Source of the DNA: Escherichia coli
GTDB lineage: Bacteria; Pseudomonadota; Gammaproteobacteria; Enterobacterales; Enterobacteriaceae
Length of the DNA stretch: 64,000 bases
Assembly (NCBI RefSeq): GCF_048403405.1
Contig: NZ_CP183129.1
Strand: one strand, 5' to 3'
Each line of letters starts with the position of its first letter. The stretch's first letter is position 1. The notes under the pieces were generated by a model that had not been told where the DNA came from, did no database searches, and saw only the letters and a program-made list of their open reading frames with translations. Below are positions 22,190 through 52,385 of the stretch, one piece after another. The translations under genes and the position numbers were made by a program.

Positions 22190-23501
22190 TTATACCGGTA
22201 AAGCTTCAGGTGTATTAAGTAATTCTTTATTGGTATCAGATGCCAGGTTACCTGCAGCCAGCGGTGCCGCTGCACCCTGCATCAGACGATCCAGCGCAGT
22301 GTCACTGCGCGCCTGTGCACTCTGTGGTGCTGCGGCCAGAATGCGGCGGGCCGTTTCCACGGTCATTCCGGGGGTTTCTGCCAGAACGCGCGCCTGTTCT
22401 TCGCGTCCGTGAGCCTCCTCACAGTTGAGGATCCCCATAATGCGGCTGTTTTCTGCCGCAACCGCTGCGGTGATCTGTGCGTTCACATCCGGCTGCGCCG
22501 CGCTGGCGTTTTCGCCCTCCTTCGCAGGCTCCACGGTGGTGATGTCAGCCTGCGAAGCAGTGGCTGAAACAGTTGTTGATTGAGTCTCTTTGGTCATTCG
22601 CCCTCCTGAGAGACGGGATTTACGTGCATCCAGTGCATCACGCATGACGGTGATCGCATCGGTGCTGTTAACAAGTTCATCAGCCAGTCCGGCATCAATG
22701 GCCTCCTGACCGCTGTACACTGCAGCCTCGGTATCCAGCACAGCCTGCACAGACAGGCCGGTATATGCCGACACCTTCTGCGCAAACATCTGGCGGGTTG
22801 CATCCATCCGGGACTGCAGTGTTTCCCGGACGTCATCCGGAAGATGGCTGTAGGGGTTGCCATCCACCTTATGGCTGCCGCTGTAAATCAGCGTGATTTC
22901 CACGCCCTGTTTCTCCAGCGCAGCACCGTAATTGCTGTGAGCCATCATGACGCCGATGGAGCCTGTCCGGGCGGTCTGCGTGACCAGGCGCCGGGAAGCG
23001 GCACTGGCAAGCAACTGACCTGCACTGCAGTTCATGTCGTTGGCAAGCGCCCATACCGGTTTTATGTCACGCACACGGGCGATGATGTCAGCGCAGTCAA
23101 ATGCCCCCGCCACCATCCCGCCGGGCGTGTCCATATCGAGCAGAATGCCGTCCACCATCGGATCGCTGGCAGCCTGTTGCAGACGGGCGATAATGCCGTT
23201 GTAACCGGTCATCCCCGAATACGGCTGCAGCGCCCGCGTCCGGCTGACCAGCGTGCCGGAAACCGGCAGCACGGCGATGCCGTTCATGACCTGATAACTG
23301 CGGGCCTGTCGTGGCCCGCCATCATCACCGGATAACGCCAGCGTCGCGGGTGCCTCTCCGGCAGCCAAGCTGTCACCGGACACCGCATCCGTCAGGCGGC
23401 TGATCCCAAGCTGACCTGCAAGTGCACAAAAGAAAACCCGCGCATAGGCGGGTTCAAGCATCAGCGGCTCATTAAAGGCCATGCTGGCAATATGCGGGAG
23501 A

Positions 23502-23521
<20 letters not shown>
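22190..23521 (-). CDS. C: prohead protease/scaffold C (with in-frame Nu3 region)
   Basis: Lambda C-like from (V/M)TAELRNLPHIASMAF; probable GTG start at 23519-23521. Confidence 0.85.
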
Positions 23522-27202
<3,681 letters not shown>

Positions 27203-27228
<26 letters not shown>

Positions 27229-27748
27229 TCAGCAACCCCGGTATCAGTTCATCCAGCGCGGCTGCTTTGTTCATGGCTTTGATGATATCCCGTTTCAGGA
27301 AATCAACATGTCGGTTTTCCAGTTCCGGAAAACGCCGCTGCACCGACAGGGGGATCCCGTCGAGAATACTGGCAATTTCACCTGCGATCCGCGACAGCAC
27401 GAAAGTACAGAATGCGGTTTCCACCACTTCAGCGGAGTCTCTGGCATTTTTCAGCTCCTGTGCGTCGGCCTGCGCACGCGTAAGTCGATGGCGTTCGTAC
27501 TCAATAGTCCCTGGCTGGAGATCTGTCTCGCTGGCCTGCCGCAGTTCTTCAACTTCCCGGCGCAGCTTTTCGTTCTCAATTTCAGCATCCCTTTCGGCAT
27601 ACCATTTTATGACGGCGGCAGAGTCATAAAGCACCTCATTACCCTTGCCACCGCCTCGCAGAACGGGCATTCCCTGTTCCTGCCAGTTCTGAATGGTACG
27701 GATACTCGCACCGAAAATGTCAGCCAGCTGCTTTTTGTTGACTTCCAT
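27203..27748 (-). CDS. Nu1: terminase small subunit Nu1
   Basis: 181 aa, MEVNKKQLADIFGASIRTIQNWQEQGMP... Confidence 0.95.
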
Positions 27749-27925
27749 TGTTCATTCCACGGACAAAAACAGAGAAAGGAAACGACAGAGGCCAAAAAGC
27801 TCGCTTTCAGCACCTGTCGTTTCCTTTCTTTTCAGAGGGTATTTTAAATAAAAACATTAAGTTATGACGAAGAAGAACGGAAACGCCTTAAACCGGAAAA
27901 TTTTCATAAATAGCGAAAACCCGCG

Positions 27926-27937
27926 AGGTCGCCGCCC
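27926..27937 (-). other. cos site (cosN 12-nt cohesive end GGGCGGCGACCT on the minus strand), cosB region toward Nu1
   Basis: Plus-strand aggtcgccgccc, preceded by ...cgaaaacccgcg, matching the lambda left end in reverse complement. Confidence 0.85.
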
Positions 27938-28136
27938 CGTAACCTGTCGGATCGCCGGAAAGGACCCGAAAAATGATAATAATTATCATCTACATATCAC
28001 AACGTGCGTGTACGCCATCAAACCACGTCAAATAATCAATTATGACGCAGGTATCGTATTAATTGATCCGCATCAACTTAACGTAAAAACAACTTCAGAC
28101 AATACAAATCAGCAACACAGAATACGGGACAACCTC

Positions 28137-28331
28137 ATGTCAACGAAGAACAGAACCCGCAGAACAACAACCCGCAACATCCGCTTTCCTAACCAAATGA
28201 TTGAACAAATTAACATCGCTCTTGATCAAAAAGGGTCCGGGAATTTCTCAGCCTGGGTCATTGAAGCCTGCCGTCGGAGACTAACGTCAGAAAAGAGAGC
28301 ATATACATCAATCAAAAGTGATGAAGAATGA
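28137..28331 (+). CDS. hypothetical small protein, possible ribbon-helix-helix fold
   Basis: 64 aa MSTKNRTRRTTTRNIRFPNQMIEQINIALDQKGSGNFSAWVIEACRRRL...; beta-alpha-alpha pattern; the upstream in-frame extension crosses cosN and is rejected. Confidence 0.4.
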   Translation: MSTKNRTRRTTTRNIRFPNQMIEQINIALDQKGSGNFSAWVIEACRRRLTSEKRAYTSIKSDEE

Positions 28332-28581
28332 ATATCCCGGTTTCTTTACCTCCCCTCCCACCCCGCACAGGACTGGCGAGCGTGTGGGACAAATATGTGA
28401 GTCATAAACGCCTTATCCTCAGAAATGCAGTTGGCATCCGAACAGGACGATATTGTAAATTCACCTAATTACGAGGCATTGCAGTAGTTGAATTGTAGTT
28501 CTGTATTAGCCTGACAGTGACAGAATGCGATATTGACTCTGTCACAGGTGAAATAGTTTGAATGGTTAGCAGTTATGGTGA

Positions 28582-28788
28582 TCAGTCAACCACCAAGGAA
28601 TAATCCTTCGAATTCTTATCGTGCTTCACCAACGCTGCCTCAATTGCCCTGAATGCTTCCAGAGACACTTGATGTTCTATACATGCAATTACAACATCCG
28701 GGTAACCCATCGAAATGGTGCTATTAAGCATAGTTTTTACACGAATCTGCTCCTGGGAGGGGGCATCAGTGTATTGATCTTTATGCAT
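28582..28788 (-). CDS. hypothetical protein (68 aa)
   Basis: ORF only; cos-proximal late-region gene. Confidence 0.35.
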
Positions 28789-29083
28789 TTTGTCGCTCCA
28801 TGCGTTTGCTCTTCACTTGCGGCTAAAAATATAACGTCAAATCACTCAGCATGAAAGAGTGAAAGTTTCAGCGCGTTTCCCTTACATAATCTGTCATTTG
28901 TATTCTCTTCAGGCATACCGGAAAGACTAGGTATTGTCACACAACCAATACCATCGACAATCGAGATTTATATCTATTCGGTAATGTTTAAATATAACAA
29001 AACCCCGTAAAAACGAGGTTTATGGGTAATTTGTATTGTTGAATAGCATCTGATGAGAAATTGATGCTAATACTATAAACATA

Positions 29084-29257
29084 CTAGATTAAATCAATCT
29101 TGATATCATAGCTTTCAAGACCAGTCATTTTTTCCCGTGCAGTAAACTGGATACTGGTAACTTCTTTCCCGGTCTTTTTCTTAAGCTCAATGATTTTTTT
29201 TGTTATATATTCAGAAATATCTGCTTCTGTTTTTGTTTTTAACTCTTCAATGTTCAT
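29084..29257 (-). CDS. GnsA/GnsB-family protein
   Basis: 57 aa from MNIEELKTKTEADISEYITKKIIELKKKTGKEV...REKMTGLESYDIKIDLI. Confidence 0.6.
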   Translation of the reverse strand: MNIEELKTKTEADISEYITKKIIELKKKTGKEVTSIQFTAREKMTGLESYDIKIDLI

Positions 29258-29429
29258 CATTTCCTCTTTTAGTCTGTTATGACTTTCCTGGTACACAGTA
29301 GTGTCAATTATATGGAGCAAACGTATAAAAGATAAGATGAAACATCGCAATAATCAACATACGACGGTCTAAATTTCACACAAACAGATAAAGATGATTA
29401 TCATTTATTATCAATGCATTAGAATCAAA

Positions 29430-29660
29430 TCAATTCAAGAGTCTCATTGCTGCTTCCAGAATTTCTTCTGAAGTTACATGTCGATCCGCTGCTACATAAA
29501 TGACTTTATGATCTCCGGTCAGAGATGGAAACCCTGCAGCCATTACAGTGAGGTGTGTTGTTTCGCCATTTGGATATTCACGCATGATGGTGTTAACTCC
29601 GGTCATCACTGGCACTACCATTGCTGGTTCAGAGTTAAAAAAAACTATTATTTTTTTCAT
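29430..29660 (-). CDS. hypothetical protein (76 aa)
   Basis: ORF only, start chosen at MKKIIVFF. Confidence 0.35.
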   Translation of the reverse strand: MKKIIVFFNSEPAMVVPVMTGVNTIMREYPNGETTHLTVMAAGFPSLTGDHKVIYVAADRHVTSEEILEAAMRLLN

Positions 29661-29931
29661 AATGTTACCGTAATATGTGAGTATCCATCGACTAGACACT
29701 AAGCAAAAAAGCTCCCGAAGGAGCCTTCATTTTCACTTTCTTAAATCTAACGACAGACGGCTAACATTTAAGTATTGTGAAATATTATCAAATGTAATCA
29801 TCATTGATTTACAAAAGATACATTTTGCCCCGAAAGGATTCCTGTCAGAAACATCAAAAGATGATGTTCTATACTGAGAACCATGGCAACACGGGCATCT
29901 AAAGTGAATATGGTTTGTAATATTTTCTACC

Positions 29932-30144
29932 TCAAAGTGCCACTACATGAACAGCCGCGGGGCCTTTAGGTCCGTTCTCAATACCAAATTCGACTTCCTG
30001 ATTCTCAGTTAACGTTTTGAAATCGTTGCTCTGAATAGCTGAGAAATGGACAAACACATCTTTGCTACCATCTTTCGGCGTGATGAAACCAAAACCTTTT
30101 TCAGGGTTAAACCATTTCACTAAACCAGTCATTTTGTTAGACAT
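29932..30144 (-). CDS. cold-shock protein (CspA family, CspI-like)
   Basis: [23 protein letters not shown]...; RNP motifs. Confidence 0.9.
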
Positions 30145-30508
30145 CATTATTACCTTTTGAAGAAGTTAGCCCTTGGGCAGAATGGTCCGAAAAAAAAATA
30201 TCAGAGAGAAAAACCAACAAGGAAATCTCAAGAGGTACAAATAATAAATTTATAACAATGACTGCTTCAGATAATTTTGTAACAAACCAGAACACCATTA
30301 ACGCATGATTAACCAACCATAGCAAGGATTACTTTTGTAAAGAAAAACACACGAATGAAACAATAGCTTTATTTATTAATAAAACGTGTCATTCTGTCTA
30401 ATGACCTTTTATCTTACCCTTAAGATTTCAAGGATTTTGACTCATGGAAGAGTCCTTTTTATTTAAATTTCACATTCAGCGCTAAAAATAATCCGATTTA
30501 ATATTAAT

Positions 30509-31536
<1,028 letters not shown>

Positions 31537-31649
31537 GGATATTTATCAGGATTTATCGGCTTCAAATCCCTGGATATGTTAAATCTTACCTCACCAGTGA
31601 TGGGCACTGGCGGGAGGAGGATGTCAATCTGATAAACACAGAGGTGACT

Positions 31650-31910
31650 ATGGATTACACAAATCTACCAAAACAAACTTTTGCTGATTTAATCGCACTC
31701 AGGCAAGCAGTCGTAGCCCTAATCAACTTGTTGCCGGAGAAGGAAAAGGAATTAGTTAAAGCGCTTCTTAACAGAACTGCCGCCGATTTTTCATCATATC
31801 CACTGACAGATGACCTTGCGGACCTTCCTGAATTAATTGCAGCGTCCGCCATTAAGCTTACTGAAGAGATTTACCCTCCTCAAAAATCTTCACAAAATTC
31901 CTGCGAGTAA
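31650..31910 (+). CDS. possible antisense-oriented hypothetical protein (86 aa)
   Basis: Strong RBS gaggtg 5 nt before the ATG; lies in the R/ydfR-like intergenic region on the opposite strand. Confidence 0.25.
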   Translation: MDYTNLPKQTFADLIALRQAVVALINLLPEKEKELVKALLNRTAADFSSYPLTDDLADLPELIAASAIKLTEEIYPPQKSSQNSCE

Positions 31911-32409
31911 CTTCAATGCAATAATCGTAAAACGCCGCAAACTGCTCATCGCGGCGTTTTTTTTCATCTTCAGAAGGAATCAGCACCGACAATTTTTTAT
32001 TCAGATCAGCGACGCTGCCCTCCAGTTTTTCAATGGGCGATTCAATATCATCTTTTTCTGACCGCAATGCCGTCGGTGGCGTCTTCAGAGAACCAGTAAT
32101 TCTTCCCGGTAGCTTTCCTTTGTAGGTTATCCACACATTCTGCGCCTCTAAAATTATGGGGCGCTTTTCCGGCGACTGCTCATCCCCTTCACATAACCCG
32201 GCTGCAACTTCCAGGAAGACCTGTCTGATGCTCCTTCTGGCTGCTGCCTCATAAAACTCCAGCGCGGCACCTTCAACACGGTCCAGCGAGATGTCCAGGT
32301 CAAAAATTTCACCGTCAAAGCGTTTTTTGTCCCTTAATGCTACAGTTACCGCAACTTTATTCTCAAAATTGCGGATCCCTTTCACAATCAGTTCATAGTT
32401 TTGTGTCAT
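31858..32409 (-). CDS. hypothetical protein, YdfR-like, between holin and endolysin
   Basis: 183 aa from MTQNYELIVKGIRNFENK...; same position as ydfR in Qin. Confidence 0.45.
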   Translation of the reverse strand: MTQNYELIVKGIRNFENKVAVTVALRDKKRFDGEIFDLDISLDRVEGAALEFYEAAARRSIRQVFLEVAAGLCEGDEQSPEKRPIILEAQNVWITYKGKLPGRITGSLKTPPTALRSEKDDIESPIEKLEGSVADLNKKLSVLIPSEDEKKRRDEQFAAFYDYCIEVTRRNFVKIFEEGKSLQ

Positions 32410-33097: not shown

Positions 33098-33381
33098 TTT
33101 AATATTGTGGTACTTTTTGTGGGAGTCATCCACTTACGCACTTTGTTTTGCTATGCCAGCAGTTAGCTTCTGCTGTAAAACTATTCATGCAGCAAACCTG
33201 CACTTCACCACAATGGTTAGCATACTTTTCCTGATTAAGTTATTGCCAAATATGCTGGCCATTGTTTCATGTATTGGACCTCCTTACTATTTATTAAAGA
33301 GATCCAATATTCACCACTCTGTCTGTATCTCCACTCAGGCATCAGCCTTCTTCGTTATCGTATACAGACAAACTATGAATT

Positions 33382-33597
33382 TTAATCAGTAATTATGACA
33401 TTTGCTGCTGCAGGACCTTTAGCACCACTCTCTACAGAGAAGGTAACCTTTTGACCTTCAAATAAGGTTCGATAATTATCATTCTGAATCGCAGAAAAAT
33501 GCACAAACACATCTTTACTACCATCAACAGGAGAAATAAAGCCAAAACCTTTATCAGCGTTAAACCATTTTACTAAACCAGTCATTTTATTTGACAT
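33382..33597 (-). CDS. cold-shock protein (CspB/CspI-like)
   Basis: 71 aa [23 protein letters not shown]... Confidence 0.9.
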
Positions 33598-33896
33598 TCT
33601 ACATTCCTTAACTTGAGCCTTTCGGCATAAATGGCTTGTATAACAGAAACGACTTCGTACTTAATTGGAGAGACTCAAAGAAGGAATAAGTGAATAACAC
33701 CTGAAATGAGAACTGCTTTAGTAAACTACTTCGTATATCGTCTGTTCTTCAAACCGACGCAATCATTAACGCATAGTTGAACATATGAAGCAATGTTTAT
33801 TTTAGACATCCAGCCATCTTCAACCCCATCAAAAAACTATAGCTTTCTTCAGGAACGTGTGTATAGTGCGCCAAGTTATCAGTATTAAGGAATTTT

Positions 33897-40183: not shown

Positions 40184-41012
40184 GACGATGCCCTCCGCTG
40201 ATATTCAGGAGACGGTGAATATGAAAATTAGCCTTATCCGCCAGACGAATACGTTCAGCCTGCAAGTTAAGAAGGGTTTCTACCAAAACCTGATGCGCCT
40301 GCGGATCCGAAAGAGTTACCTTGCGCAGAGCACGTAGTGCAGTTGTTACATAACTGAGTTTATGTAAGTCTTCATCATTCAGACGAGTGAGGGCTGGGAC
40401 AGTAGCCATGATGGCAGCCTCCGATAACAGTGAATTACCTTCACCACCGGAAACGCCAATTTCGCTGGTGGTGAACTGAACGGGGTTGGCGTAACCGGCG
40501 TTATCGGAAACCGGCGCACCTTTCGGTGCCCCCGTCCAGCCCACCATAATTTGGGTGTGCACAGACGCAGACGATAAAAAAGACGCTGGCGCGTCATATA
40601 TCGCCGATAACATTTCCAGGACGCCAATCCCGTCACCCGCTTTATAAGGTGCCTGAACAGTGTAACGTCCCGGAATGGCAGAATCAATGTGCTGGTGGTC
40701 CTTCACACTCAACAAAATCACGCCTGAATTTCCACAAAGGACTAAAGCACTCATGCGGGTAGTCTTTGCGAAGATAGATAACGCGCTGTGTTTCTGGTTC
40801 CCAACGAATAACATGGACATAAAGCCCTCTTCCGTCACGAAACCAGCGGTTAAGTTCCCGCACAACTCGCCCCCCACAGTCAGGTAAAGTTCTCTGTGGT
40901 TACTTACAGCCAGGTAATTTGGTAATCTGCATTCATGCCGTAACAACAGGTGTTCAGCGACACTGACCACCAGCTGTTGCGACAAACGGTTATTTGCCGT
41001 TAAACTGTTCAT
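40176..41012 (-). CDS. hypothetical protein (278 aa), translationally coupled between the CII-like and O-like genes
   Basis: ATGA overlap with the upstream gene; no recognisable motif. Confidence 0.5.
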   Translation of the reverse strand: MNSLTANNRLSQQLVVSVAEHLLLRHECRLPNYLAVSNHRELYLTVGGELCGNLTAGFVTEEGFMSMLFVGNQKHSALSIFAKTTRMSALVLCGNSGVILLSVKDHQHIDSAIPGRYTVQAPYKAGDGIGVLEMLSAIYDAPASFLSSASVHTQIMVGWTGAPKGAPVSDNAGYANPVQFTTSEIGVSGGEGNSLLSEAAIMATVPALTRLNDEDLHKLSYVTTALRALRKVTLSDPQAHQVLVETLLNLQAERIRLADKANFHIHRLLNISGGHRHA

Positions 41013-41804: not shown

Positions 41805-41826
41805 ACAATATGTACCTCCGGTATAC

Positions 41827-41854
41827 ATATTACATGATTGAAATGAACCTTCAA
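41827..41854 (-). promoter_or_regulatory. PR-like promoter (-35 TTGAAG, 16-nt spacer, -10 TAATAT)
   Basis: Read on the minus strand upstream of cro. Confidence 0.4.
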
Positions 41855-41894: not shown

Positions 41895-42569
41895 ATGAAA
41901 ACAATCCATGACATCCGGCGGTCTAACGCCAGAAAACTGAGAGATGGTGTTGGCGGAAATTCATCCTTTGCCACCATGATTGATCGCGAGCCAACCCAAA
42001 CCAGCAGGTTTATGGGGGATGGCGCTACTAAAAATATCGGTGACAGCATGGCACGGCACATCGAAAAATGTTTCGACCTGCCTGTCGGATGGCTTGATCA
42101 AGAACACCAGACAACGAACATCACAAAAAAACCTGATGTTTCAATCACTAACAAACAAATAACGTTAGTCCCTGTCATATCATGGGTACAGGCCGGAGCA
42201 TGGAAAGAAGTTGGCTATTCTGAGGTTGATTTGAGCACAGCAGAAACGTATCCCTGCCCTGTACCCTGTGGCGAAATGACTTATATCTTGCGGGTGATTG
42301 GTGATTCAATGATTGATGAGTACCGCCCTGGAGACATGATTTTTGTTGATCCCGAAGTCCCTGCCTGCCACGGTGACGACGTTATTGCATTGATGCACGA
42401 TACAGGCGAAACCACCTTCAAGCGATTGATAGAAGATGGAACACAGCGTTATCTCAAAGCATTAAACCCAAACTGGCCTGAGCCTTACATTAAGATTAAC
42501 GGTAATTGCTCTATAATTGGTACAGTGATTTTCTCGGGAAAACCAAGAAGATACACAATAAAGGCCTAA
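41895..42569 (+). CDS. cI: CI-like repressor (HTH plus S24 LexA-like peptidase domain)
   Basis: 224 aa; Ala-Gly site in VQAGAW, Ser in GDSM, Lys in TFKRL. Confidence 0.9.
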   Translation: MKTIHDIRRSNARKLRDGVGGNSSFATMIDREPTQTSRFMGDGATKNIGDSMARHIEKCFDLPVGWLDQEHQTTNITKKPDVSITNKQITLVPVISWVQAGAWKEVGYSEVDLSTAETYPCPVPCGEMTYILRVIGDSMIDEYRPGDMIFVDPEVPACHGDDVIALMHDTGETTFKRLIEDGTQRYLKALNPNWPEPYIKINGNCSIIGTVIFSGKPRRYTIKA

Positions 42570-42582
42570 TCAATATTTATGA

Positions 42583-42604
42583 ACCTGCTTCGGCAGGTTT
42601 TTTT
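42583..42604 (+). terminator. intrinsic terminator after cI
   Basis: acctgcttcggcaggt followed by ttttttt. Confidence 0.6.
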
Positions 42605-42608
42605 ATAC

Positions 42609-42636
42609 TTGACAATGTACCCATGAGATACATAAT
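42609..42636 (+). promoter_or_regulatory. PL-like promoter (-35 TTGACA, 16-nt spacer, -10 CATAAT)
   Basis: Directly after the cI terminator, directed toward the early-left genes. Confidence 0.5.
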
Positions 42637-43039
42637 GTATCCAAAAGAAACATGAGGCAGGCAAGATTCAAACAAAATTTGGTTGTAACACGGCGTATGG
42701 CACATGCGTCGTTAGCGGTCTGGGGACGTTAAAGGGGACAATCCACTTCTTGCTCGGGCAAACAAACCAGGTAGTCGGAATGTGCAAGTCAATGATGATG
42801 CTGATAAGACGCCTAACCAGCGTGGCGATCCGGTTTGACGCCTGGGAAGAGACCAGGGTGCAACGATGAGGGCATTTATGGAGCCGCGACAAAGTGTGGT
42901 GCCGTAACTGGCTAAGTGCTCTCAGCGTTGTGGTAATCCGCGAAATGGCGCGGCGGTAAGTATGGCGGGGTTACTCTTTCCCCGTTGAGGACACCGGATT
43001 GTCAGGTTGACCATACGCCTGAGTGACAACCCCACCACA

Positions 43040-43100
43040 ACAGCCACTGCTTTGGCGGTACCAGTTTGTACACTTGCTTCCGGCTGGTACCGCTCTTTTT
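43040..43100 (+). ncRNA. DicF-like sRNA candidate ending in an intrinsic terminator
   Basis: tttggcggtaccagttt resembles the DicF core as I recall it; perfect 10-bp stem gcggtaccag/ctggtaccgc (43055..43093) followed by tcttttt. Confidence 0.4.
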
Positions 43101-43237
43101 ACAAAACAGAGAAGAGCATCACCGGACGACAGGCTCATAACCCAATCCATCCGGGCGGCTGCCACCGCAGGTGTTCTTCTCTGTTTTGTGGAGAAACCAA
43201 CCGACCTTGCAGGGTCGATATGATGAGGAGCAGCAAA

Positions 43238-43600
43238 ATGGCTAGCGAACGCAGTACTGATGTGCAGGCATTTATCGGGGAGCTGGACGGCGGCGTATTT
43301 GAAACCAAAATCGGCGCAGTTCTCAGTGAAGTCGCTTCCGGTGTGATGAACACGAAAACCAAAGGTAAGGTCTCACTCAACCTGGAAATCGAACCATTTG
43401 ATGAGAACCGTGTGAAAATCAAACACAAACTCTCATATGTTCGCCCGACTAACCGCGGGAAAATTTCCGAAGAAGACACCACCGAAACGCCGATGTATGT
43501 CAATCGCGGTGGTCGCCTGACTATTCTGCAGGAAGACCAGGGACAATTACTGACTCTTGCCGGTGAACCTGACGGAAAACTACGCGCAGCAGGTCATTAA
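43238..43600 (+). CDS. hypothetical protein (120 aa), first gene of the early-left operon
   Basis: RBS aggag 8 nt upstream of ATG GCT AGC (MASERSTDV...). Confidence 0.5.
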   Translation: MASERSTDVQAFIGELDGGVFETKIGAVLSEVASGVMNTKTKGKVSLNLEIEPFDENRVKIKHKLSYVRPTNRGKISEEDTTETPMYVNRGGRLTILQEDQGQLLTLAGEPDGKLRAAGH

Positions 43601-52064: not shown

Positions 52065-52150
52065 GCGAAGGTGGCGGAATTGGTAGACGCGCTAGCTTCA
52101 GGTGTTAGTGTCCTTACGGACGTGGGGGTTCAAGTCCCCCCCTCGCACCA
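52065..52150 (+). tRNA. leuV: tRNA-Leu (anticodon CAG)
   Basis: gcgaaggtggcggaattggtagacgcg...ttcaagtcc...cgcacca; long variable arm; CUUCAGG anticodon loop. Confidence 0.9.
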
Positions 52151-52178
52151 AAAACCACGTTGATATTGCTCGCACTGG

Positions 52179-52264
52179 GCGAAGGTGGCGGAATTGGTAG
52201 ACGCGCTAGCTTCAGGTGTTAGTGTTCTTACGGACGTGGGGGTTCAAGTCCCCCCCTCGCACCA
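52179..52264 (+). tRNA. leuP: tRNA-Leu (anticodon CAG)
   Basis: Near-identical tandem copy. Confidence 0.9.
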
Positions 52265-52298
52265 AACGAGGCGATATCAAAAAAAGTAAGATGACTGT

Positions 52299-52385
52299 GC
52301 GAAGGTGGCGGAATTGGTAGACGCGCTAGCTTCAGGTGTTAGTGTCCTTACGGACGTGGGGGTTCAAGTCCCCCCCCTCGCACCA
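52299..52385 (+). tRNA. leuQ: tRNA-Leu (anticodon CAG)
   Basis: Near-identical tandem copy. Confidence 0.9.

Follow-up and report, generated by a model that had tools for sequence, protein, structure and literature searches.

Does the untranslated leader of an Escherichia coli prophage early operon encode a DicF RNA, or an element that only resembles one? DicF is one of the few prophage small RNAs (sRNAs) with an established effect on the host. The locus considered here lies in 64,000 nucleotides (nt) of E. coli prophage DNA, the window, between a cI-like repressor gene and yfdP, the first early-left gene; its leader is 100% identical to that of strain YDC107. A preliminary description had reported a DicF-like core embedded in a strong terminator within this leader. 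Judged from sequence comparison, the terminator hairpin belongs by descent to the dicF locus family, yet it is a distinct and widespread variant, here named class 2, that we found neither named nor described in the records inspected or the literature covered. A literature search by hairpin sequence returned no papers, its coverage stopping short of the 1994 article of Faubladier and Bouche and of the P1 genome paper. The label 'DicF-like' is thus right for ancestry and architecture, and wrong for family membership and predicted function.

The hairpin and the two elements immediately upstream of it are as follows.

43054–43100 (+): DicF-related intrinsic-terminator hairpin, class-2 variant, with a 13-base-pair (bp) stem, a 15-nt loop (UUGUACACUUGCUUC) and the tail UCUUUUU
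43042–43053 (+): linker AGCCACUGCUUU, placed by alignment with the Qin prophage, which has 31 nt here, including the RNase E site and DicF nt 1–12
42917–43048 (+): leader domain B, a three-hairpin junction equivalent to the folded part of the 190-nt DicF precursor

The motif TTTGGCGGTACCAGTTT (tttggcggtaccagttt) occurs at 43051–43067, its sole match in the window, where 0.05 matches would be expected by chance. The 5′ arm GCGGTACCAG (43055–43064) is perfectly complementary over 10 pairs to CTGGTACCGC (43084–43093), and G–U pairs at 43054/43094, 43065/43083 and 43066/43082 bring the stem to 13 pairs, with TCTTTTT following at 43094–43100. The folding energy of the hairpin is −20.8 kcal/mol, against −15.9 kcal/mol for DicF. 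Both the sequence and its folding therefore agree with the strong terminator of the preliminary description, with its perfect 10-bp stem and tcttttt tail; a simple terminator scan had overlooked the hairpin solely because its loop exceeds the 8-nt limit of that scan. A Rho-independent terminator as the 3′ end is one of the marks of DicF, and the predicted fold would provide one here, about 455 nt into a leader poor in open reading frames (ORFs).

The likeness to DicF is partly supported. Ancestry is supported by the hairpin 5′ arm, which is identical to DicF nt 13–29 at 16/17 bases, and by the ~125–132 nt upstream of the hairpin, which share ~90% identity with the stretch that directly precedes dicF in Qin and have matches in more than 4,000 genomes. 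Family membership is not supported: the Rfam DicF covariance model (RF00039) gave no match in the whole window at its gathering score (48 bits), and none even at E ≤ 10 in the 801 nt of 42500–43300 or in the 96 nt of 43015–43110, whereas the positive controls scored 76.7 bits (K-12 Qin) and 72.5 bits (phage HannyBb). In the alignment with Qin, 19 nt (TATCAATTTTCTGGTGACG) are deleted from the window, which removes the RNase E site together with DicF nt 1–12 (UUUCUGGUGACG), and the loop and 3′ arm of the window hairpin are unrelated to those of DicF.

It is these parts of DicF that have been mapped to targets. DicF pairs with ftsZ through its 3′ region and acts on xylR and pykA through its 5′ end (PMC5069750); the duplexes that we computed for DicF with ftsZ and manX both run through its loop and 3′ arm. 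On hybridization energies only, with z-scores taken against shuffled sequences, the window RNA forms a duplex of −24.1 kcal/mol (z +0.3) with ftsZ from −50 to +30, compared with −38.5 kcal/mol (z −2.1) for DicF, and for manX the values are z −0.5 and z −2.0, respectively (DicF–manX site 149–166). Every mapped DicF targeting stretch (ftsZ, manX, xylR and pykA) is thus deleted or replaced in the window hairpin. With those segments gone and the duplexes at the level of shuffles, ftsZ repression of the kind exerted by Qin DicF, which the preliminary description had mentioned, is not expected.

A further link to the dicF locus is the folded precursor domain, which lies directly upstream of the hairpin as it does in that family. 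A covariance model (R1), trained on 13 sequences from Qin types, P1, P7, Salmonella phage F1055 and phage pPE4, none of them of the window type, hit 42917–43048 with 136.1 bits (E = 8.9e-34), its sole hit in the window. Across 48 distinct domain B sequences, 96.7% of cells are paired, and seven pairs are compensatory compared with 2.1 in shuffles (0/500). The domain is closed by GUUGUGGU (42927–42934) pairing with ACCACAAC (43034–43041). In Qin, the transcript starts at the repressor-controlled dicBp, and DicF arises by termination followed by processing by RNase III (190 nt) and RNase E (53 nt), the 5′ end of the 190-nt species being made by RNase III (PMC10448788). By analogy, RNase III may cleave at the GUUGUGGU/ACCACAAC stem in the window, where the stem itself is conserved. 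Domain B also contains a candidate pseudoknot, GUAUGG (42960–42965) with CCAUAC (43011–43016), that can pair in 48/48 distinct sequences; P1 has the double change GCAUGG:CCAUGC and two sequences have a G–U intermediate, amounting to one independent compensatory event.

The window also shares with the dicF locus its position on what would be a repressor-controlled early-left transcript, after the repressor gene. The elements that define this position are listed here.

41895–42569 (+): cI-like repressor gene (ymfK type, LexA/S24 family), an ORF annotated 'LexA family protein' in RefSeq
42581–42607 (+): intrinsic terminator of the repressor gene (hairpin 42581–42600), with the 8-bp stem GAACCTGC–TTCG–GCAGGTTT followed by a T run
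42609–42641 (+): PL-type sigma-70 promoter, −35 TTGACA at 42609–42614 and −10 CATAAT at 42631–42636, with a 16-nt spacer
43238–43600 (+): yfdP, the first early-left gene, from its ORF and annotation; the class-2 hairpin always travels with it

The repressor product matches PHROG 4 (transcriptional repressor; 7.5e-49), and a promoter scan scored TTGACA-16-CATAAT (42609–42636) at 11/12 consensus positions. Two palindromes overlap this promoter, ATGTACC-N5-GATACAT at 42615–42633 and GATACAT-A-ATGTATC at 42627–41, and the cI–cro spacer holds a similar one, ATGTACC-TCC-GGTATACAT, at 41810–41828. These palindromes are putative operators, through which the cI-like repressor would control the promoter that drives the leader; phage SfV has this promoter and operator as well. 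The GGTACC and TGTACA motifs inside the hairpin resemble repressor half-sites, and we considered whether the hairpin holds an operator of its own; it travels with yfdP under different repressors (as in mEp460), and the resemblance is probably a coincidence.

The order ymfK(cI), terminator, promoter, leader, yfdP has its counterpart in SfV, cdtI, mEp460, pPE4, HannyBb, F1055 and P1. As first described, the leader is long and untranslated, follows the cI terminator and a PL-like promoter and runs to yfdP at 43238: RefSeq annotates no gene in 42570–43237 of the identical strain YDC107. That blank is uninformative as regards RNA genes, canonical dicF being likewise unannotated in one non-K-12 genome. 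Downstream of the hairpin come yfdP, yfdQ, yfdR and so on. Both the annotation and the comparison with Qin agree with the earlier observation that no dicB-like gene follows, and the post-terminator sequence has no homology to Qin.

The class-2 unit, that is, the hairpin with the long hairpin that follows it, was found in 2490/5426 complete E. coli genomes (46%), across which the element is 95–100% conserved, and in 60 phage records, including cdtI, mEp460, Ayreon, 2H10, Stx2c, Stx2a, SfV, SfIV and SfII. A yfdP homologue always follows it directly, and the repressors under which it stands are of several kinds. In viral contigs, a pattern scan separated two major classes of hairpin, that of Qin DicF and that of the window, together with the rarer hairpins of contigs L116 and L121, which keep the 5′ arm while the 3′ arm co-varies (C:G to U:A) and the loops are unrelated. 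The 5′ arm UUUGGCGGUAYCAGUUU is conserved across the classes. Mosaic breakpoints coincide with conserved stems: class-2 copies, which occur in three upstream contexts, become alike only at ACCACAAC; in SfV-type copies the likeness starts only at TGGCGGTACC, and between Qin and class 2 it is confined to the 17-mer. Across phages, at least eight unrelated, stable, U-tailed terminator hairpins follow domain B or its alternative versions. The dicF locus can thus be seen as one version of a modular leader, in which a conserved folded domain is joined to an interchangeable terminator hairpin.

Two of these relatives showed unusual arrangements. In phage pPE4 (L136, ~1590–1720), the linker and DicF-like hairpin appear to be tandemly repeated after domain B; the recorded host of this phage, Actinobacillus, seems odd given that its neighbouring genes dicA, ydaT and kil form an E. 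coli-like set. In the viral contig L121, a 127-nt transfer RNA (tRNA; 2274–2400), detected by Rfam at 38.2 bits and not called by ARAGORN, lies upstream of the DicF-like hairpin at 2416. Its anticodon loop is His-like (GUG) and it carries a long insertion; it stands exactly where the window has domain B, with the same GUUGUGG...CACAAC acceptor/closing stem. This suggests that, in leaders of this sort, closed modules and phage tRNAs can stand in for each other as cassettes. In the window leader itself, ARAGORN found no tRNA (42500–43300), and no Rfam tRNA match was obtained.

Two further hairpins separate the terminator from yfdP.

43101–43189 (+): long hairpin directly after the terminator, 89 nt, with a 20-bp uninterrupted outer stem (−44.3 kcal/mol)
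43202–43217 (+): small hairpin just upstream of the yfdP ribosome-binding site (RBS) GAGGAG (43226–43231)

The long hairpin was compared in six sequences from E. coli, Salmonella and Klebsiella phages: pairing over its 33 pairs is 92.4%, with compensatory changes in five. Judging by this predicted structure, RNase III probably processes read-through RNA here. A small hairpin precedes the yfdP RBS in all relatives, with a different sequence at the same place in ST64B and Klebsiella phage Kp4866-6, and may act as a 5′ stabilizer. Across five homologues of the stretch from terminator to yfdP, substitutions show no codon periodicity (17/15/13 over the three positions for ST64B; 16/18/17 for Kp4866), and 1–2-nt indels break the frame, which indicates that it functions as RNA and is not protein-coding. 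No protein-coding gene was therefore found at the locus, the discovery of which had been named at the outset as a reason to abandon a DicF-like interpretation.

The reading that we favour, with a probability of about 0.6, is that the hairpin, as a leaky terminator, sets free a processed leader RNA resembling the DicF precursor, and that read-through RNA is cut at the long hairpin. This reading is modelled on Qin, in which transcripts ending at dicF coexist with read-through transcripts reaching dicB (PMC10448788); among relatives, read-through is also documented in Salmonella prophage ST64B (PMC7067206). On inactivation of the LexA-like repressor, the PL-type promoter would fire, and part of the polymerases would stop at the hairpin, releasing a stable, structured leader RNA of ~455 nt that RNase III would probably trim at the domain B closing stem to ~175 nt. 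Other polymerases would read through into yfdP-yfdQ-yfdR, and cutting of the 20-bp hairpin at 43101–43189 would free the yfdP messenger RNA from the leader. Any action in trans would proceed via the new loop or the linker, and not via DicF–ftsZ pairing.

Several points weigh against this reading. We infer the termination efficiency, the processing sites and the RNA stability of the class-2 variant, all three. A small mature form may not exist, given that the A/U-rich RNase E site of DicF is missing from the linker. That at least eight unrelated terminators can follow domain B implies that selection may favour any terminator there, as opposed to a trans-acting sequence, which favours a purely cis role. 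A duplex scan of the 64-kb window with the loop region returned only an antisense self-match and a background tail, with nothing at a start site, and this lack of a convincing target in the window also counts against the reading. Lastly, the transcriptomic parallel is not the same RNA. In Salmonella prophage ST64B, a non-coding RNA (ncRNA), STnc1310, comes from the homologous leader that separates cI from the yfdP homologue, and under peroxide or nitric oxide shock expression drops step by step from the ncRNA through the yfdP homologue to that of yfdQ, at ~2300, 1200 and 200 transcripts per million, respectively (PMC7067206). STnc1310 was detected by RNA sequencing, is induced by DNA-damaging stress together with both of these genes and has a GGCGG...CCGCC terminator at its end, but it maps to an upstream terminator (~1153–1226 of locus L138) and not to the positional counterpart of 43054–43100 (~1441–1506 of L138), and its sequence is unrelated to the window hairpin. 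It is an analogue.

That positional counterpart has features of its own. In both ST64B (L138, 1441–1506) and Kp4866-6 (L139, 1442–1510), the loop of the corresponding terminator holds a strong Shine–Dalgarno sequence, AGGAGGAAG, with GTG or ATG after it. Since the reading frame is not the same in both phages, a conserved peptide is improbable; a translation start inside the terminator loop could affect termination there. The D23580 annotation starts the yfdP homologue STMMW_20251 at about the ST64B terminator loop.

The window was compared with several better-known leaders. With Qin DicF it shares an operon driven by a repressor-controlled leftward promoter, the ~130-nt folded domain, the 5′ arm and a Rho-independent terminator with a U5 tail. 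The differences are that the stem is interrupted in Qin and perfect in the window, that the window lacks the 5′ end and has another loop and 3′ arm, that Qin dicF is followed by the dicB spacer and dicB in place of the 20-bp hairpin and yfdP, and that it is preceded by ydfABC, where the window has a non-coding domain, domain A. In the leader of the P1 ban operon, the genome record annotates a 'dicF-like region' (AF234172, 68791–68892) that corresponds to domain B. There, too, domain B comes directly after a C1-controlled promoter and is followed by an intrinsic terminator, in an operon that includes tRNA genes and a domain A copy as well; however, the P1 terminator (GCCCAUC-UUCG-GGUGGGC) is unrelated, the GUUGUGG/CCACAAC closing stem is absent and the order of modules differs.

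Domain A is the second conserved RNA of the leader.

42680–42905 (+): leader domain A (core 42690–42860), a conserved structured RNA recognized from homologues and covariation, with no Rfam match in scans of the window and of 42500–43300

Homologues of domain A occur in P1 (between trnI and ban), P7, D6 and SJ46, in Uetakevirus phages, where they closely precede tRNA-Arg, in Klebsiella phage Kp4866-6, and in mEp390, where the repressor gene lies just ahead of the domain; tRNA genes are often its neighbours. In seven sequences and 26 pairs, 98.4% of cells are paired, and 12/26 pairs are compensatory compared with 6.3 in shuffles (0/500), whereas slid-partner controls pair in 30–38% only. Invariant within it are the motifs GGAAUGUGCAAG and GGCGAUaCGGUGUGAC and a GGAAGAG loop, and its G–U pairs fit the + strand only. 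The whole leader (42643–43240) folds at −230.9 kcal/mol (z = −4.9 against shuffles).

These two domains bring in the main alternative, possible though unlikely, in which the leader is a cis-acting attenuator: domains A and/or B would decide whether polymerase passes, by put-type antitermination, a factor or ligand switch, or protection from Rho, and the released RNA would be a by-product. Both domains are conserved, with covariation, across unrelated P1, lambdoid and Uetakevirus phages, the terminator after them is exchangeable, and all yfdP-type phages keep a stable terminator before genes that need to be expressed. Domain A begins ~35 nt past the predicted transcription start, as putL lies just after PL (PMC9378689). 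The early observation that no N-like antiterminator could be recognized was borne out for the first five early-left proteins, none of which is annotated as an antiterminator. More broadly, the lambda PL leader (nutL, the RNase III site of the N leader, and tL) and HK022 putL resemble the window in that the leader following PL is structured and untranslated, an RNase III-type hairpin stands ahead of the first gene and early transcription has terminators to pass, but the window differs from lambda in having neither an N gene nor conserved boxA/boxB. A boxA-like sequence, CGCUCUUUUUACAA, does lie at 43091–43104; it reads CGACCUUUUU, CGCCCUUUUU and so on in ST64B, Kp4866-6, L116 and Qin, and since it is not conserved in these relatives we treat the resemblance as chance.

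Against attenuation, a blastn search of the leader against HK022 23000–32000, the immunity region with putL and putR, gave only chance matches of 10–14 nt, an inverted-repeat search for putL/putR produced nothing usable, and the leader matched no Rfam family; similarity to an HK022 put-like antiterminator is thereby ruled out at the sequence level only. No pairing that competes with the terminator appeared in minimum-energy or centroid folds, and SfV and ST64B have the same terminator and yfdP without domain A or a Qin-type domain B. The Qin transcripts, moreover, are explained by plain partial read-through and processing (PMC10448788).

A wider form of the attenuator idea, rather doubtful as it stands, is that domains A and B constitute a cis-acting RNA device of a new type in phages, which might help RNA polymerase or the transcript to pass a terminator or Rho in phages without N, DicF-type hairpins being swappable terminator or sRNA cassettes attached to it. 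The domains are common to P1-like, lambdoid and epsilon15-like (Uetakevirus) phages, where they precede exchangeable terminators or tRNA-like cassettes, and wherever the promoter is known (the window, P1/P7 and lambdoid relatives) the transcript that carries them is an early one under repressor control. What novelty remains in the locus lies mostly in these conserved leader domains around the hairpin, and two covarying domains outside Rfam are concrete candidates for new structured phage RNAs.

It is improbable that the DicF-like 5′ arm is merely a module boundary left by recombination and the hairpin an ordinary insulating terminator carried along with the yfdP module. Breakpoints that fall exactly at conserved stems would fit such a scar, as would K-12 CPS-53, which has lost the element with no obvious consequence. 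However, phages of E. coli, Salmonella and Klebsiella keep one arrangement (folded domain, linker, terminator, long hairpin, then a small hairpin before the RBS), the compensatory changes in the stems point to selection on RNA, and the near-identity of the element throughout the 2490 genomes that carry it speaks against a scar.

A functional equivalent of DicF, blocking ftsZ translation and cell division when the prophage is induced, is more improbable still. Descent and position in common with dicF and the conserved 5′ arm speak for it, and the early-left operons of many phages carry division inhibitors (PMC3961180). Yet RF00039 stays silent on the 96 nt around the hairpin where its controls reach 72–77 bits, the loop and 3′ arm that would pair with the ftsZ RBS and manX have been replaced, and the ftsZ duplex is no better than those of shuffled sequences.

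It is barely credible that the locus encodes a small protein, whether from a 66-codon GTG ORF (43023–43223, +), an in-frame extension of yfdP from 43007 or minus-strand ORFs. These ORFs are present, and a 'hypothetical protein' is listed here in cdtI (orf40), mEp460 (gp36/gp37) and some RefSeq genomes, but substitutions are spread evenly over codon positions, short indels break the frame, the GTG has no preceding Shine–Dalgarno sequence, RefSeq is empty here in the identical strain and the compensatory changes fit RNA stems. The minus-strand 'hypothetical proteins' of some phage records cross the hairpins (window 42971–43165 and 43135–43503, both −), and these calls are probably spurious because of the RNA covariation and the lack of a coding signal.

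The hairpin variant bears on more than this prophage. The second version of the hairpin is about as common as the textbook one, and it is found in Stx2 phages and in Shigella serotype-converting phages. Were it to act in trans, it would be an uncharacterized prophage regulator switched on at induction in many pathogens; were it to act only in cis, it would offer a route into the control of early-left transcription in lambdoid phages that lack N.

Elsewhere in the window, Rfam detected a C4 antisense RNA (82.8 bits; 40464–40551, −) adjoining isrK (55.4 bits; 40576–40652, −). This pair, ~1.3 kb from the immunity region in the same prophage, corresponds to an antirepressor control module of the P1/P7 type. 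Two Rfam matches to the cspA thermoregulator (29886–30292 and 33319–33758, both −; 112 and 157 bits) represent cold-shock-protein genes with their 5′ untranslated regions, and three clustered tRNA genes with long variable arms lie at 52065–52382 (+).

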